In this document: piece by piece, positions 30,585 through 42,940 of the stretch
How the letters are laid out: the number at the start of each line of letters is the position of its first letter
Numbering within the stretch: the first letter of the stretch is position 1
NCBI GenBank assembly: GCA_046483495.1
Contig: JAWODC010000092.1
Location: 1-64,000 of the forward strand
Direction of reading: 5' to 3'
Length of the DNA: 64,000 nt
DNA from: Desulfobacterales bacterium
GTDB lineage: Bacteria; Desulfobacterota; Desulfobacteria; Desulfobacterales; UBA5616
Translations under genes and position numbers: made by a program
The notes under the pieces: generated by a model
Databases searched by the model: none
The model's input: the letters and a program-made list of their open reading frames with translations, nothing else
Told to the model about the DNA's origin: nothing

Positions 30585-32243
30585 TTACATGTGTTCCGGT
30601 GCGGAGACGCCCAAAAGCGTCAACCCGTTGCGGATCACCTGGTTTACAGCGGACACCAGATACAGCCGGCCACGGGTTAACGGCGCATTATCCGATAAGA
30701 CCCTGTGTTTATTGTAGTAGGCATGAAAGGCGGATGCAAGGGTTATCAGATAAAACGTAATTCTGTGCGGCTCCAGAAGTTCGGCGCTGTTTTTCACGGT
30801 TTCAGGATAACCGTCCATCATTTTAATCAGTGCGGTTTCCTCGACCGCAGTGAGTCCGGCCAGGTCACCTGGATCACAATCGATATCCCCGTATCCGCGC
30901 TCGACTGCGTTACGGATGATGCTGGATATTCGGGCATGTACGTATTGGACGTAATATACCGGGTTTTCATTGGTTTTTTTCTTGGCGATTTCCAGATCGA
31001 ATTCCAGGGGGCTTTCATGGTGCCGGGTCAAAAAGATAAACCGTGCTGCATCGCTGCCCACTTCCTCCATTACATCTTTTAATGTGACGAATTCTCCGGC
31101 ACGGGTGGACATGGCGACAGGCTCTCCTTTCCGCAAAAGATTCACCAGTTGAACCAGGATGATTCCGAATGCGTCCGTTTCATGGCCGGAGGCGGTGATG
31201 CACGCCCGCATGCGGGGAATATAGCCGTGATGGTCCGCTCCCCATACGTCGATGATCCTGGAAAATCCTCGGCAAAACTTGTCCTCATGATAAGCGATAT
31301 CCGACGCAAAGTAAGTGGTCTCCCCATTGCTTCTTACCACCACGCGGTCTTTCTCGTCGCCGAATGACGAGGTTCTGAACCACCATGCTCCGTCTTTTTC
31401 ATAAACCAGGCCCTTTTGTTTAGAGGCATTCAAGGCCTGATCGATTTTTCCGTCATCGTACAGGGTCTGTTCACTGAACCAGGTATTATATCGGACACCG
31501 AAATGGTTCAGATCCGTTTTGATGCCGTCGAGAATATGGGCCGCGGCAAACCGGGCACATTTATTCACGGCGTCATTTTCATCCATTTTCAACAGGGCAT
31601 CGCCGCTCGAGGCCCGGATCATCTTCGCTATCTCGATAATATAGGATCCCTGATAGCAGTTCTCCGGAAATGTGCGATCAATACCGAACAAGGACTCGTA
31701 TCGCAGGTAGACACTGCGCCCCAACGTGGTGATCTGTCGCCCGGAATCATTGATATAATATTCCCGGTGTACATCATATCCGCAAAACGAAAGAATCCTT
31801 GCTACCGCATCCCCAACGGCGGCCCCTCTGCCGTGGCCAACGTGCAGCGGGCCGGTCGGGTTGGCGCTGACAAACTCAACCTGCACCCGTTCATTTTTTC
31901 CGATGTCAACGGAGCCGTAGGTTTCCTTTTGGGCATGAATGGTTTTCAAAACCGCATGCCAGGCGGAAGCGTTTATGAAAAAATTGATAAACCCCGGACC
32001 GGCGATTTCCACTTTTTCCAGAAGGCCCTCGGTATCTGGAATGCCGGCGACGACGGCCTCGGCGATGCGTTTAGGCGCCGATTTGAATGCGGATGCAGAT
32101 ACCATGGCAAAATTTGTGGAGAAATCGCCGTGGGTATCATATTTGGGCACCTCGATCGTTATGGGCGGAATGTCCGCGGGATCCAAGTCCTCGAAAGCAT
32201 TACGGACGGCCGCCGCAATCAGTTTTTGCAGCTTCTGCTTCAT
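30585..32243 (-). CDS. argS: Arginine--tRNA ligase
   Basis: [30 protein letters not shown] and YVQYVHAR motifs. Confidence 0.98.
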
Positions 32244-32377: not shown

Positions 32378-32407
32378 TTGACAAGGCATCGCCTATCCGG
32401 TTATATT
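32378..32407 (+). promoter_or_regulatory. sigma70-type promoter of the Ni/Co uptake operon
   Basis: TTGACA at 32378-32383 with TATATT at 32402-32407. Confidence 0.55.
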
Positions 32408-32417
32408 ATTTTCAATA

Positions 32418-32528
32418 ACAGGTTGAAGCCTGTACGGATGACAACAACCGAAATGGGTAATATTCGGTTGCATCCCGAGCCACGAAGGCAGCCGTATCAT
32501 AGGATGGGTGTATTCGTGGTTTTTTTTT
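32418..32528 (+). promoter_or_regulatory. Structured 5' leader with intrinsic terminator (candidate riboswitch/attenuator)
   Basis: Three hairpins: ACAGGT-TGAA-GCCTGT; GGATG..CAACCGAA-loop-TTCGGTTG-CATCC; and GCCACGAA...TTCGTGGT followed by a T run just before the RBS. Confidence 0.65.
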
Positions 32529-32547
32529 GGAAAAAATGGAGGACCCA

Positions 32548-33321
32548 ATGAAAAAGGGAATAGGATCAAGCATTCTCGTCATGGTGATGTTTTTGTGGCT
32601 TCGACCGGGAATGGCGCATTATGGTATGGTCATCGTGTCCGACAGCATGGTAACGCAGGAAGATGATCGTGCGGTGAGCGTCACCCTGTCTTTTTCACAT
32701 CCCTTTGAAGGCATCGGTATGGAACTGGTCAAGCCGGCGGATTTCGGCGTCATGTCCGATGGAAAGAAACAGGACCTGCTGAGCTTTCTGAATAAAACCC
32801 AGGTAATGGGCCATACGGCATGGACGGCGGATTACCGCATTCAGCGTCCGGGCACCTACTCTTTCTACATGGAGCCGGTTCCCTATTGGGAGCCGATCGA
32901 AGACTGCTATATCGTTCACTATACCAAAACCGTTACGGCGGCATTTGGAGAAGATGACGGTTGGGACGAACCCGTCGGATTGAAAGCGGAAATAATACCC
33001 CTCTCCAGACCATACGGCCTTTATGCGGGAAACGTTTTTCAGGGCAAGGTTCTCGTGGAAGGAAAGCCCCTGCCCGATGCCACGGTTGAGGTTGAATACT
33101 ACAACCGAAAAGGAAGATACAAGGCTGCGACGGATTACCTGATCACCCAGCGCGTAAAGACAGACGCCAATGGCATATTTGCCTATGCAGCCCCTGCCGC
33201 AGGTTGGTGGGGATTTGCCGCATTGACTACCGCCGATAAAACGATGCCTTACGACGGTGAGGAAAAGGAAGTTGAAATCGGAGCCGTTTTATGGGTTGAA
33301 TTTCATGAGTTCGGCAAATGA
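32548..33321 (+). CDS. DUF4198 periplasmic protein (NikK-like Ni/Co transport accessory)
   Basis: Signal peptide ending at AHYG, SHPFEG, PYWEP.ED.YIVH and [13 protein letters not shown] segments, upstream of cbiM. Confidence 0.88.
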
Positions 33322-33371
33322 AACAGGCTACATGTCTGTTCAGCCGAAAAAACAGATGATAAAGGAACCGT

Positions 33372-33980
33372 ATGCATATTTCCGAAGGCGTATTGTCGGG
33401 TCCCGTTTTGGTTTCCGGATATGCTCTGGCGGCTGCCGGTACCGCGCTCGGGCTTAAAAAGCTGGATTATGAAAAAATTGCCCAGGTGGGAATCCTCGGC
33501 GCTTCTTTTTTTGTCGCGTCCTTGATTCATATTCCGATCGGACCTGCCAATGCCCACTTGATTCTAAACGGCATCGTCGGTTTGCTGCTGGGGTGGGGTG
33601 CTTTTCCAGCCATTTTGGTGGCGTTGACCCTTCAAGCGGTTCTGTTTCAATTCGGCGGGATCACCCCCCTGGGGGTCAACACGGTGATTATGGCAGTGCC
33701 GGCGGTGACCGGATTCTATCTTTTCGGATGGATGGTGCGGAGAAAGCCGGACTTGACCGCTGTCGCCGCTTTTTTCTGCGGGTTTGGGGCGGTTTTTTTC
33801 TCAGCGATCATTGCAGGGGCCGCCCTCATGTTTACCGAAGACGATTTTCTAAAAATTGCCTATCTTCTCGTGGCCGCCCATCTGCCGGTCATGGTGGTCG
33901 AAGGAATTGTAACGGCCTTTTGCGTGGGATTTTTAAAAAAGGTCCGGCCGGAAATATTGGCTGCCCATCATCAGGGATAA
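33372..33980 (+). CDS. cbiM: ECF-type Co/Ni transporter S component CbiM/NikM
   Basis: Metal-binding N-terminus MHISEG, FFVASLIH.P.GP..AHL and FQFGG motifs. Confidence 0.93.
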   Translation: MHISEGVLSGPVLVSGYALAAAGTALGLKKLDYEKIAQVGILGASFFVASLIHIPIGPANAHLILNGIVGLLLGWGAFPAILVALTLQAVLFQFGGITPLGVNTVIMAVPAVTGFYLFGWMVRRKPDLTAVAAFFCGFGAVFFSAIIAGAALMFTEDDFLKIAYLLVAAHLPVMVVEGIVTAFCVGFLKKVRPEILAAHHQG

Positions 33981-34046: not shown

Positions 34047-34664
34047 ATGAAAAACCAACGCCGGAAAAATGATATGCCTTATGTCATATCGATAGTACTA
34101 TTCTGCGTTTTCGCCGCGCAAAACGTGCAGGCGCACCGGGTCAACGTGTTTGCATGGGTTGAAGGTAACCGCGTGTTTACCGAAAGCACATTGAGCAGGG
34201 GCAAAGCCGTTTCGGGCGGCGACATCACCGTATATGACAGTTCCAATCGGATTTTGCTGAAAGGAAAAACAGACGATCAGGGTGAATTTACGTTCATTCT
34301 GCCCCAAAAACCGCCGCTGATTATCGAATTGAACGCCGGCATGGGTCACCGGGCGCAATGGACCCTTTTGCCTGACGATGCCGACGGCAATGCCTCTTCA
34401 GCGGAAGGCGATGCCGCCGGCATGGAACCGAAACCGGAAACGGTTTTCCCATTGACGGAAAACGGAAGCCATATCTCCGTCCCGCAGCTGGAAGCCGCCC
34501 TGGAAAGAGCCCTGGATAAACAACTCAAACCCATTATCCGAATGCTTGTCGATAACGGGAACGAACCGTCCCTAACGGACATTATCGGTGGAATCGGATA
34601 TATTTTCGGCATCTTCGGCATTATCGCCTATTTGCGGGCCCGTTCATTGATGAAGAAGGATTAG
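34047..34664 (+). CDS. NikL/CbiL-like accessory membrane protein of Ni/Co uptake
   Basis: Signal peptide ending at AHRVNVFA, GKTDDQGEF, AGMGH and a C-terminal TM DIIGGIGYIFG. Confidence 0.8.
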   Translation: MKNQRRKNDMPYVISIVLFCVFAAQNVQAHRVNVFAWVEGNRVFTESTLSRGKAVSGGDITVYDSSNRILLKGKTDDQGEFTFILPQKPPLIIELNAGMGHRAQWTLLPDDADGNASSAEGDAAGMEPKPETVFPLTENGSHISVPQLEAALERALDKQLKPIIRMLVDNGNEPSLTDIIGGIGYIFGIFGIIAYLRARSLMKKD

Positions 34665-40356: not shown

Positions 40357-42336
40357 TTAAGCAGCGTCCATTTCCCTTCGATCCGCCATATCGACCAATA
40401 TGCGTTCCCGAGCCTTGTCGATGCCCAGGGCTTTACGTTTCTTGTCAATATGTTCGATCATCATTTTTGCCATTTCATAAGGATCCGGTGTGAACCCCCA
40501 TTTCCCCAATCCCAAGCTTTCCAAACCATCGAACAGCAGTTTGTAAAATTTGGTCTCCCTGACAATGGGAAAGGTAACACCGAATACCGTGTATACACCT
40601 GATGCTACGAAGTACTGGCCGATGGATATGGCCTTTTCGCTCATCCACTCCGGAGCCGCCCCGGCAACGGGCAAATCGGCGATGGATTCTCCCAGCCCGC
40701 CGGTGCGGACCATTTCCGAAGCAGCAATCAGAATACGGCTGTTGTCCACGCACGATCCAAGGCCGAGAACCGGCGGCATTCCGACGGTTTCACAAACTTC
40801 ACGCAGTCCCGGACCGGCCAGGTAAGCCGCCTCAGGTGTGTAAAGTCCGGCTTTGGCCAGAGCGATTTGGGAACAGCCGGTCTGAAGAACGAGCACATCG
40901 TTTTTGATCAGTTCTTTTACCAATTCAACATGCACCCAATCCTGCTTGACCCGTGCATTGGTGCAGCCCACTACACCGGCAACACCCCGGATTCGGCCGT
41001 TCATGATGTTGTCGTTCAATGGTGTGTAGCTGCCCCTGAAGGATCCCCCGAGCATGTAATTGATGTATTCGTGGGAGAACCCATGAACGCCTGAATTCTT
41101 GATTTTGGGGATGTGGATCGGTTTATTTCGTGTCTTGAACCGGTCGATTGCCTGTAGGACGACTTCATCGGTGCAGGCCATCGGATCGTGTTCGTGGAAC
41201 TCGATATGGGCGGCCCCTTCGATGTGGCACCGCGGATTCGTAGTAAACAGCTTCGTGCCGTAGCAGGAGGCAACCGGGGCCAGTCCCTGCTTGATGCACT
41301 GAACATCGACACACATGGCGTCAACGGCGCCGGTCACCAAAATCGCCTCGGTTGACATGAAGTTGCCCGCATGGGGAACACCGTGGCGAACCAGCATTTC
41401 AGCTCCGGAGCAGCACATCCCGACGAGGTTGATGCCGTCGGCGCCGGCGGCTTTTGCTGCCTCGACCAGTGAGCGCTGATTTACTGATACCATCATGGAC
41501 TCGAACAGGTTCGGCTCATGTCCGTGAATGATAATGTTTACGGATTTCTCCTTGAGGACTCCCATATTGACATCCACCTGAACCGGTGTCGGGGTGCCGA
41601 ACAGAATATCGGAGATTTCCGTGGCGACCATGGATCCCCCCCAGCCGTCTGATAATGCGGTCCGGCTGATCTGTTTGGCAAGGTTTTCATAATGCTGATC
41701 CACCCCCATGTGTGTCCGGTGCATGATTTCCATGATTTCTCTCATCGCACCCCGGGGAACGATGCCGTTCTTTCGCCATGTCTCGAGCGTTTTTTCAGGC
41801 ACCCGCTTGGCGAACGGGATTTCTCCATCCACCTGGGTATACGTTCTTTCCAATTCGTTATACAGGTCGATGGCGATTTCCTGGGTCGTCTTTCCCTCGA
41901 TATCGATTCCGATCGAAGAGGCGACCTGCTCCAGCTTCATCGTATCTTTTATAATATAATCAGTAATATGGCCGTTAACCACCTCCCGGAAAAGATCGAG
42001 CATCGCCATGCCGTGGTCGGTGTGCGCGGCTGCCCCGGCGGCAACCATCCTGGCAAAATTTCGTGCCATGATCGTGTCTATGGTCGCACCGCAGACGCCA
42101 ACCTTGCTGTATGGATCCTTGGCATTCAGCCGGCATGGTCCCATGGAGCAATGTTTGCAGCACGCTGAATCGGCCCCGATGGGGCAAGCCCTCATATTGG
42201 CCGCTCGGTCAAACGCAATTTCGACCCCGTCCGCCTTGGCCTTTGTCAGCATTTGGGCGGTGGCGTCACATATCGTGAACTCCTTTGGTTCGGTTTTTTT
42301 ATCGGAAACGGTCTTCTTGATTTTGGTTTCACTCAT
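40357..42336 (-). CDS. cooS: Anaerobic Ni,Fe carbon-monoxide dehydrogenase catalytic subunit
   Basis: D/B-cluster motif CPIG....CCKHCSMGPC and C-cluster ligands HGHEP, CCSG, DVQC, GCTN, TGCS, GSCVDN. Catalytic His (AHTDH) and Lys (SEKA) are present. Confidence 0.97.
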   Translation of the reverse strand: MSETKIKKTVSDKKTEPKEFTICDATAQMLTKAKADGVEIAFDRAANMRACPIGADSACCKHCSMGPCRLNAKDPYSKVGVCGATIDTIMARNFARMVAAGAAAHTDHGMAMLDLFREVVNGHITDYIIKDTMKLEQVASSIGIDIEGKTTQEIAIDLYNELERTYTQVDGEIPFAKRVPEKTLETWRKNGIVPRGAMREIMEIMHRTHMGVDQHYENLAKQISRTALSDGWGGSMVATEISDILFGTPTPVQVDVNMGVLKEKSVNIIIHGHEPNLFESMMVSVNQRSLVEAAKAAGADGINLVGMCCSGAEMLVRHGVPHAGNFMSTEAILVTGAVDAMCVDVQCIKQGLAPVASCYGTKLFTTNPRCHIEGAAHIEFHEHDPMACTDEVVLQAIDRFKTRNKPIHIPKIKNSGVHGFSHEYINYMLGGSFRGSYTPLNDNIMNGRIRGVAGVVGCTNARVKQDWVHVELVKELIKNDVLVLQTGCSQIALAKAGLYTPEAAYLAGPGLREVCETVGMPPVLGLGSCVDNSRILIAASEMVRTGGLGESIADLPVAGAAPEWMSEKAISIGQYFVASGVYTVFGVTFPIVRETKFYKLLFDGLESLGLGKWGFTPDPYEMAKMMIEHIDKKRKALGIDKARERILVDMADRREMDAA

Positions 42337-42445
42337 TTACAGCCTCCCTTTGTGTACATTAGTGGATACCTCCACGTGAAAAAGACCCTTCCGGATTTTT
42401 GATGCAAAAAATACCGCAATCGACCACCTTTGGAACCTGTTTGTA

Positions 42446-42940
42446 TCATTCGACTTTTTTAAAGGCATTGGATTTCGCACCGCAGACCGGGCACGCGTCG
42501 GGGGCGGCGTCTTCACAGGTGTAACCGCAAACCGAGCAAACGTAATAGTCGACGTTTTTTTGGTCTTCCAGGTTGTCCAGCATTTTTTGATATAAATCCG
42601 CATGAATCTTTTCGACATCATTCGCATATACGAAACTTCTTTCAGCTGCTTTATGCCCCTCTTCCTTTGCCGCTGAAATCATGTCCGGATACATGCTTTT
42701 GAATTCATGGGTTTCGCCGTTTACGGCCTCTTGAAGGTTCTCAGCGGTGCTTTTTACCGCCTTCAAGGCTCTTAAATGGGCATGGGCATGGACGGTTTCT
42801 GCTGCCGCAGCGGCCCGAAACAGTTTGGCAGCCTGATGATATCCTTCTTTGTCCGCTTTTTCGGCAAAGGCCAGGTATTTCCTGTTCGCTTGTGATTCAC
42901 CCGCGAAAGCATCCCATAGATTCTGTTCCGTTTTTGACAT
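42446..42940 (-). CDS. rbr: Rubrerythrin
   Basis: AFAGESQANRKY, ETVHA, GETHE and EKIH diiron ligands, with C-terminal CSVCG...CPVCG. Confidence 0.96.
   Translation of the reverse strand: MSKTEQNLWDAFAGESQANRKYLAFAEKADKEGYHQAAKLFRAAAAAETVHAHAHLRALKAVKSTAENLQEAVNGETHEFKSMYPDMISAAKEEGHKAAERSFVYANDVEKIHADLYQKMLDNLEDQKNVDYYVCSVCGYTCEDAAPDACPVCGAKSNAFKKVE

Follow-up and report, generated by a model that had tools for sequence, protein, structure and literature searches.

A conserved leader RNA of nickel and cobalt uptake genes in anaerobic bacteria, a probable attenuator with DUF3842 as its candidate protein reader

Introduction

Sulfate reducers, acetogens and related anaerobes rely on nickel enzymes, yet the DNA-binding repressor NikR (NikR_C domain) was found in just 2 of 61 relatives from the order of the Desulfobacterales bacterium studied here. 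What, then, controls nickel uptake in such a genome? We addressed this question at a nik operon within a 64,000-nt stretch of DNA (the window, meaning the whole stretch analysed), which is preceded by a leader that an original prediction had taken for an unrecognised cis-regulatory RNA sensing Ni2+/Co2+ or a metallocofactor.

Results

The nik leader and its surroundings

The genes behind the leader turned out to be the predicted Ni/Co uptake operon, encoding a DUF4198/NikK protein, a CbiM-family NikM and NikL, and a position check of the window located the promoter, stems, terminator and ribosome-binding site that had been predicted in front of it. The features are as follows.

30585..32243 (-), argS, divergent neighbour, context only
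32378..32407 (+), sigma-70-type promoter TTGACA-18 nt-TATATT, from promoter scan and motif positions
32418..32433 (+), H1, 6-bp hairpin with loop UGAA (P1 of the original prediction), a conserved (A)NGAA-loop hairpin
32434..32478 (+), variable linker, folding in this genome only into the stem P2 of the prediction (32436-32475)
32479..32489 (+), H2, GCC-ACGAA-GGC hairpin of 3 bp, sharing sequence with the terminator 5' arm and predicted to act as antiterminator
32491..32509 (+), H3, inner hairpin with an AUAG loop, degenerate relative to the AUGAA/AGGAA typical of the family
32479..32528 (+), intrinsic terminator, 32479-32486 pairing with 32513-32520, then a run of 9 U
32538..32542 (+), ribosome-binding site GGAGG by motif position, with ATG at 32548
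32548..33321 (+), nikK (DUF4198 periplasmic metal-binding family, PF10670, E 1e-59)
33372..33980 (+), nikM/cbiM ECF S component, by family matches
34047..34664 (+), nikL family ECF subunit (NF058648)

TTGACA begins at 32378 and TATATT at 32402, and the promoter scan gave a single site here, with 11 of 12 matches and an 18-nt spacer, where 1.2 sites would be expected by chance in the region; across the family, TTGAC and the H1 loop were both located in 97 copies, and in 92 of these TTGAC precedes the loop by 41-58 nt. The conserved leader RNA is about 120 nt long. Its H1 arms are ACAGGT (32418) and GCCTGT (32428), GGATG occurs at both 32436 and 32502 and CATCC at 32471, the inner arms of P2 are CAACCGAA (32445) and TTCGGTTG (32463), and the terminator arms are GCCACGAA (32479) and TTCGTGGT (32513), with nine T at 32520-32528. 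In this copy the loops of H1 and H2 are canonical and that of H3 is degenerate. The minimum free energy (MFE) fold comprises the three predicted stems at -48 kcal/mol (z = -3.76), and 0 of 200 shuffles were as good. The terminator is absent from the list of a simple terminator scan because its loop exceeds the 8-nt limit of that scan.

RNA runs yielded low-depth contigs only, one of which (269 nt, run X3) corresponds to 32442-32710 and crosses the terminator; since such contigs give neither strand nor ends and may be DNA-derived, it was left out of the evidence. A 37-codon frame through the leader (ATG at 32438 to the nikK start) was considered as a leader peptide and rejected, a terminator-crossing frame being present in just 25 of 173 copies of the family. 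A weak Rfam match to 'drum' across the end of nikK (window 33255-33362, +; 21 vs 43 bits, E 0.4) was judged to be chance. About 6 kb from the nik operon, genes for a CO dehydrogenase (prismane/CODH family) and a rubrerythrin (window 40357-42940, -) represent a local nickel consumer. The nikQ and nikO-like genes are located on another contig (G000:C45:65267-66588), apart from nikKML, after an unrelated gene and without a leader, and the nikO-like frame appears short in the ORF list.

This genome carries three leader copies including that of the nik locus. BLASTN of the leader against the own genome returned no further copy, and the other two came from a loose pattern and covariance models; they are given here with the DUF3842-cooT pair considered below.

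G000:C65:3694-3821 (-), second leader copy, preceding a TonB receptor-DUF4198-NikL-like operon
G000:C18:97920-98086 (-), third leader copy, preceding a TonB receptor and then a nucleoside-hydrolase/FmdE fusion
G000:C18:102475-103095 (-), DUF3842-cooT pair, following parB immediately and situated about 4.5 kb upstream of the third copy, without a leader of its own

Architecture and covariation of the RNA family

The family layout consists of a promoter, the short hairpin H1, a variable A/U-rich linker, H2 (loop ACGAA), H3 and a terminator that uses H2 as its 5' arm. The H2/terminator module was present in 26 of 30 nikK-selected loci, these being the best 30 from the 42 genomes with a match among 61 relatives, and four of the 26 were a variant with another H2 sequence. 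Covariation was examined in 23 of these loci, chosen by protein homology and remaining after three with long or missing linkers had been excluded. Pairing in the terminator fold amounted to 89.6%, and 14 of its 19 pairs showed two-sided changes, a result that 0 of 500 shuffles reached; slid controls gave 34-45%. A pattern scan of 185,579 species genomes returned 77 loci, mostly from Desulfobacterota, also from Nitrospirota and two from Bacillota. H1, which lay outside the search pattern, occurred in 49 of these 77 loci compared to 63 of 816 control windows, and in 128 of 173 distinct copies compared to 149 of 1102.

The first base of H2 covaried with both of its alternative partners (75 modules), and the outer H2 pair was G-C in 74, A-U in 57, G-U in 35 and unpaired in 7 of the 173 distinct copies. 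H2 is supported by just one covarying pair because its two inner pairs are invariant. Since, in addition, the pattern-based covariation sets are partly pattern-selected and the outer pair shows one-sided changes only in the 23 protein-selected loci, H2 is less firmly backed than H1, H3 and the terminator. Its loop was ACGAA in 137, ATGAA in 25, AGGAA in 5 and another sequence in 6 of the 173 copies; the search pattern itself presumed such loops, with which the 23 protein-selected loci agree. H1 loops were 4-5 nt long. In all 166 foldable copies the terminator was more stable than the H2 fold, by a median of 11.5 kcal/mol and by 14.6 kcal/mol here. One and the same loop appears on two or three hairpins, which are set apart by linkers of 2-109 nt; 77 copies have both H1 and the H3 loop, 51 have H1 alone, 28 the H3 loop alone and 17 neither, and some copies begin at H2 directly after the promoter.

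Covariation across homologous leaders, seen in H1, H3, the terminator and the outer H2 pair, together with the lack of an Rfam match (see below) bears out the prediction of a cis-regulatory RNA that had gone unrecognised, is conserved and contains a conditional terminator. Two of its structural elements did not hold up. P2 belongs to the unconserved linker, the median linker MFE being -3.1 kcal/mol compared to -14.6 kcal/mol here, and the GGAUG/CAUCC pairing proposed as antiterminator is possible with at least 5 bp in 15 of 173 copies compared to 11% of shuffled pairs; in this one sequence it can form, at -29.2 vs -44.9 kcal/mol. Judged by the comparison of copies, H2 rather than GGAUG/CAUCC is the predicted conserved alternative to the terminator, the two folds being mutually exclusive and showing covariation, on the side of H2 through one covarying pair. 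Taken as a whole, the leader is almost certainly a real, conserved and uncatalogued attenuator of metal uptake.

Several loci deviate from this layout. In a variant subfamily (L008, L012, L022, L027, L166, and L168) H2 is replaced by another sequence while H1, H3 and the terminator covary, and one genome of this subfamily (G048) has NikR, DUF3842 not being found there. Tandem complete units, each with its own terminator, occur at L043, L063, L071, L044, and L089. Upstream of nikK at L303 (G033:C13:335400-336100) lies a repeated palindromic element with arms resembling those of H2 and the terminator, which could be relevant to how the motif arose or else be a source of false matches. A locus of G107 (L186:3460-4030), belonging to a family with DUF3842 but no model match, has divergent promoters with GAA-loop hairpins and terminators and no canonical H2, and is possibly a further variant.

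Searches against known RNA families

Searching the leader against Rfam 15 at gathering and E-value thresholds, the check that the prediction had called for, returned no family, the best score being that of TEG147 (18.6 vs 56.1 bits). There were likewise no matches at the gathering threshold over the whole window and none in 15 motif loci; among 20 Bacillota loci no match fell on the motif, and one cobalamin match lay about 1 kb upstream of it. The absence of a cobalamin riboswitch from the leader was also confirmed, with no RF00174 match here and two real matches elsewhere in the genome as a control, one before a TonB receptor and one before a BtuF-type ABC system. A literature search turned up neither an account of this RNA nor a function described for DUF3842, supplements and most subscription journals being outside its scope, and the accessible part of a paper on nickel in cable bacteria mentions no such leader (PMC11247825).

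Target genes and the distribution of NikR

Covariance model R1 matched 45 of the 61 relatives from the order, and copies span Desulfobacterota, Nitrospirota, and Bacillota. The downstream gene was nikK in 51 of the 77 pattern loci. Other first genes encode NikM/CbiM of three types, NikL, NikQ, NikA-type and BtuF-type binding proteins, TonB receptors, ExbB/TonB, porins, FmdE, an ECF S component, methyltransferases, and DUF3842, and several have no Pfam match or no clear ORF. Since NikM, CooT and known NikR targets, such as those of the delta-proteobacterial regulon (PMC545781, in part), dominate, and cobalamin riboswitches cover B12 uptake separately, the gene families point to nickel as the most likely signal metal, with cobalt or zinc as alternatives; a DUF4198 protein of Neisseria binds zinc according to the accessible text of PMC12663993.

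NikR (PF08753) was not found in the own genome, which is 96.7% complete, and neither was a delta-type NikR box at the nik locus when up to 4 mismatches were allowed; the linker contains one match to the enteric-type box, with 3 mismatches, which was judged to be chance. Among 151 genomes of the phylum (40 with the motif, 73 with NikR), NikR was present in 4 of the 40 motif genomes compared to 69 of the 111 others, and in genome G032 nikR lies just before nikK, with no leader. NikR was consequently rejected as the regulator of the leader, given that its gene and operator were not found and that the motif avoids NikR genomes.

Some motif-led operons of Nitrospirota also contain a small His-rich helical protein of about 66 aa (L038:538-735, L089:2287-2484), for which there was no Pfam match and no match in the own genome; it is possibly a nickel carrier.

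Co-occurrence with DUF3842 and CooT

Four families were profiled against the motif, namely NikR, ANTAR, CooT, and DUF3842, and clustering of the ORFs within 2.5 kb of the 77 loci gave no classical regulator. DUF3842 was first noticed beside copies in two phyla and then tested for co-occurrence. With motif presence called at E 0.02 in both phylum samples, DUF3842 was present in all 40 motif genomes of the own phylum (22 families) and the motif in 0 of 92 DUF3842-negative genomes, and the out-of-sample Bacillota gave 35 of 35 and 0 of 76, respectively; Fisher values for this co-occurrence overstate its significance, since kin are not independent. DUF3842 was also present in five of five distant motif genomes, whereas a search for its domain (PF12953) in 14 control genomes gave no match. 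Within the order it was found in 40 of 45 motif-positive genomes, two of the five misses being in incomplete genomes; the five are G013 (60% complete), G044 (77%), G046 (95%, 560 contigs), G048 (90%, with NikR) and G052 (92%, a weak match). A permissive motif search (E up to 1) of 10 DUF3842-negative genomes left nine empty and revealed one weak real copy, in G111 (95%), where cooT is followed by a promoter-H2-terminator copy and DUF3842 gave no match. Conversely, no motif was detected at the genome-wide cut-off in 19 of 59 and 40 of 75 DUF3842-positive genomes of the two phylum samples, and weaker real copies near DUF3842 were found in 6 of 17 genomes fetched out of those 19.

The DUF3842 gene is often the immediate neighbour of a copy, on one side or the other. 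No leader copy precedes it in the own genome, indicating that DUF3842 is not merely a target. In G034, a genome that gave no DUF3842 match, the syntenic nikK locus (L302, G034:C96:44400-45100) retains the promoter in front of a degenerate leader with an altered H1 loop and no U-run, a possible joint loss of leader and DUF3842.

In Desulfobacterota, DUF3842 is usually translationally coupled to cooT, both being present in 58 of 59 genomes, and CooT proteins beside DUF3842 keep Cys2 and His55 and match PDB 6fan; Cys2 is a nickel ligand of CooT according to the accessible part of a preprint (bioRxiv 10.64898/2026.03.10.710785). CooT was not found in 9 of 35 motif-positive Bacillota, hence it is not a universal sensor and at most accessory. 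As the regulator on its own CooT was rejected, for this reason and because the motif was not detected, at the cut-off, in any of 31 genomes with CooT but no DUF3842. Fusions of CooT to a His-rich domain of about 200 residues, adjoining DUF3842 and usually FmdE, occur in three Bacillota genomes (L290:465-1262, L291:456-1298, L292:3-800, L293:1815-2639).

DUF3842 and CooT are each shorter than 140 residues. DUF3842 is modelled with confidence (pLDDT 92.6) as a Rossmann-like fold of a generic kind, which matches many unrelated dehydrogenases with Z scores of up to 9.0, and searches against solved sequences, folds and the ESM Atlas gave no specific relative and only generic Rossmann-like matches. 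The family has a median pI of 6.7, conserved basic residues on its first two helices and an invariant glycine-rich loop, D8-G9-x-G11-G12-G13-x-G15. Prediction of a DUF3842-CooT complex (2+2 copies) scored 0.02 against a mark of 0.32, which speaks neither for nor against such a complex.

Discussion

A protein reader of the leader

The terminator is favoured in all foldable copies, hence read-through needs a factor, and as these are uptake genes such help would be due when the metal is low. Moreover, the repetition of one loop on separate hairpins with variable spacing, of which that of H1 or H3 can be lost, points to a multimeric protein reader. We propose that the leader is an attenuator read in an ANTAR-like manner by a protein antiterminator active at low nickel, most likely DUF3842 with or without CooT, a reading which the sequence comparisons make reasonably probable. 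Transcription would begin a few nucleotides upstream of H1. If the factor is absent, 32479-32486 would pair with 32513-32520 and transcription would stop at the U-run. At low nickel DUF3842, likely as an oligomer, would engage the emerging transcript at H2 and at either H1 or H3, in the manner of ANTAR proteins, and keep H2 folded, so that the polymerase enters nikK; nickel, sensed directly or via CooT or another carrier, would then release DUF3842. Whether DUF3842, with CooT as nickel sensor where present, may be a new family of RNA-binding metalloregulators that recognise (A)NGAA hairpins and replace NikR in many anaerobic Desulfobacterota, Nitrospirota, and Bacillota is, in our estimate, an even call.

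The reader could be another protein, with DUF3842 as a co-inherited partner in nickel handling. All evidence on the RNA side fits this equally, six motif-bearing genomes are without a DUF3842 match, and our profiling covered four candidate families. However, every one of the 75 motif genomes in the two phylum samples has DUF3842, whereas several motif genomes (G003, G004, and G005) lack target genes such as nikK, and we consider another reader unlikely. Direct metal sensing, the part of the original prediction that we did not retain when its cis-regulatory RNA stood, would have Ni2+ or Co2+ bridging the GAA loops, for example those of H1 and H3 favouring termination or, in a guanidine-II-like manner, those of H1 and H2. 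Precedents are found in the accessible texts on guanidine-II, where twin like-loop hairpins with a variable linker make a riboswitch (PMC5558903), and on an OFF metal riboswitch of a Mg uptake gene (PMC11672702). Yet the nik family has no conserved junction and no self-complementary loop, the same small loop is repeated, the H1 or H3 loop is dispensable, and the tie to DUF3842 would be left unexplained. In addition, with the terminator already winning unaided, a ligand acting as an OFF signal would contribute little, and uptake genes should not be turned ON by the metal that they import. We thus regard metal sensing by the RNA as less likely than a protein reader and, in itself, quite improbable.

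A riboswitch for a small molecule made or handled by DUF3842, such as a nickel-starvation signal or a metallophore-related metabolite, would account for the co-occurrence, and the modelled Rossmann-like fold with its invariant glycine-rich loop might suit nucleotide binding; the target genes include those for methyltransferases and FmdE. The conserved RNA is, however, very small for an aptamer and consists of a repeated loop, and no partner enzyme tracks DUF3842 as consistently, so that this reading too is improbable, marginally more so. Even less credible is a divergent ANTAR target read by the single GAF-ANTAR protein of the genome. The layout is shared and the loop is like an ANTAR loop minus one base, but the loops have 4-5 nt with G at position 2-3 instead of the hexanucleotide with A1 and G4 given for ANTAR targets in the accessible part of PMC3369931, a search of the 45 motif-positive relatives found no ANTAR protein in 15, and a hexaloop leader of canonical appearance adjoins the GAF-ANTAR gene itself. 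That dual-hexaloop leader, with a terminator, lies between the GAF-ANTAR gene and a glutamate-synthase-like gene (G000:C64:77850-78160, -; L111). Finally, the terminator might dampen expression constitutively, without any switch, as its fold is always the more stable one and H2 has one covarying pair; we give this next to no credence, given that the H1 and H2 loop sequences are conserved across three phyla and that the element occurs only at metal-uptake genes and seldom together with NikR. A protein antiterminator, with DUF3842 as the leading candidate, is the reading that we retain.

This RNA family would supply the missing control element for nickel uptake in these anaerobes. Through its regulon, a role in Ni/Co supply can be assigned to many TonB receptors, binding proteins, porins, and FmdE proteins that lack annotation, and DUF3842 gains a directly testable role. 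A 2024 review describes metal sensing via DNA-binding proteins or riboswitches, its accessible part holding no passage on antitermination (PMC11672702). If our proposal is true, a protein antiterminator would be a third route of metal sensing, and transition-metal homeostasis would come under protein antitermination control.

Comparison with known systems

Attenuation by PyrR, HutP and BglG/CAT proteins resembles the proposed system, each being a small RNA-binding protein with a gene often beside or inside the target operon. The RNA signals and protein families of these systems differ from those of the nik leader, and we know of no attenuation protein of these types for a transition metal. Cobalamin riboswitches likewise control Co/B12 uptake via a leader RNA, but the nik leader has no covariance match to the RF00174 clan and no conserved core of that class.

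The following comparisons refer to the accessible portions of the cited articles. The NikR regulon of delta-proteobacteria has the same targets, nikK, nikM, nikL, and nikQO (PMC545781); NikR is a DNA-binding repressor with a palindromic operator, in contrast to the RNA of the nik leader, and the two largely exclude each other. Like the nik leader, the NiCo/czcD riboswitch is a 5' leader controlling termination at transition-metal transporter genes in anaerobes (PMC11672702). It is a four-way junction ON switch for efflux, whereas the nik leader has separate hairpins, no junction, uptake genes as targets and no Rfam match. Guanidine-II (mini-ykkC) shares the short like-loop hairpins and variable linker, and the nik H2 loop starts with ACGA. 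However, the nik leader lacks two ACGR tetraloops closed by G-C pairs and has no ACGR tetraloop or CG kissing pair in H1 (PMC5558903); it is moreover transcriptional rather than translational, has other targets and no Rfam match. From ANTAR leaders (EutV, NasR, and AmiR targets; PMC3369931) the nik family differs in its (A)NGAA tetra- and pentaloops, in an H1-H2 linker of mostly 27-65 nt compared to 5-12 nt, in a third hairpin nested in the terminator, in having no tie to PF03861 and in its metal-uptake targets. With these leaders it nevertheless shares two small like-loop hairpins, several copies per genome, a default-off logic and a 3-bp hairpin that overlaps the 5' arm of the terminator.
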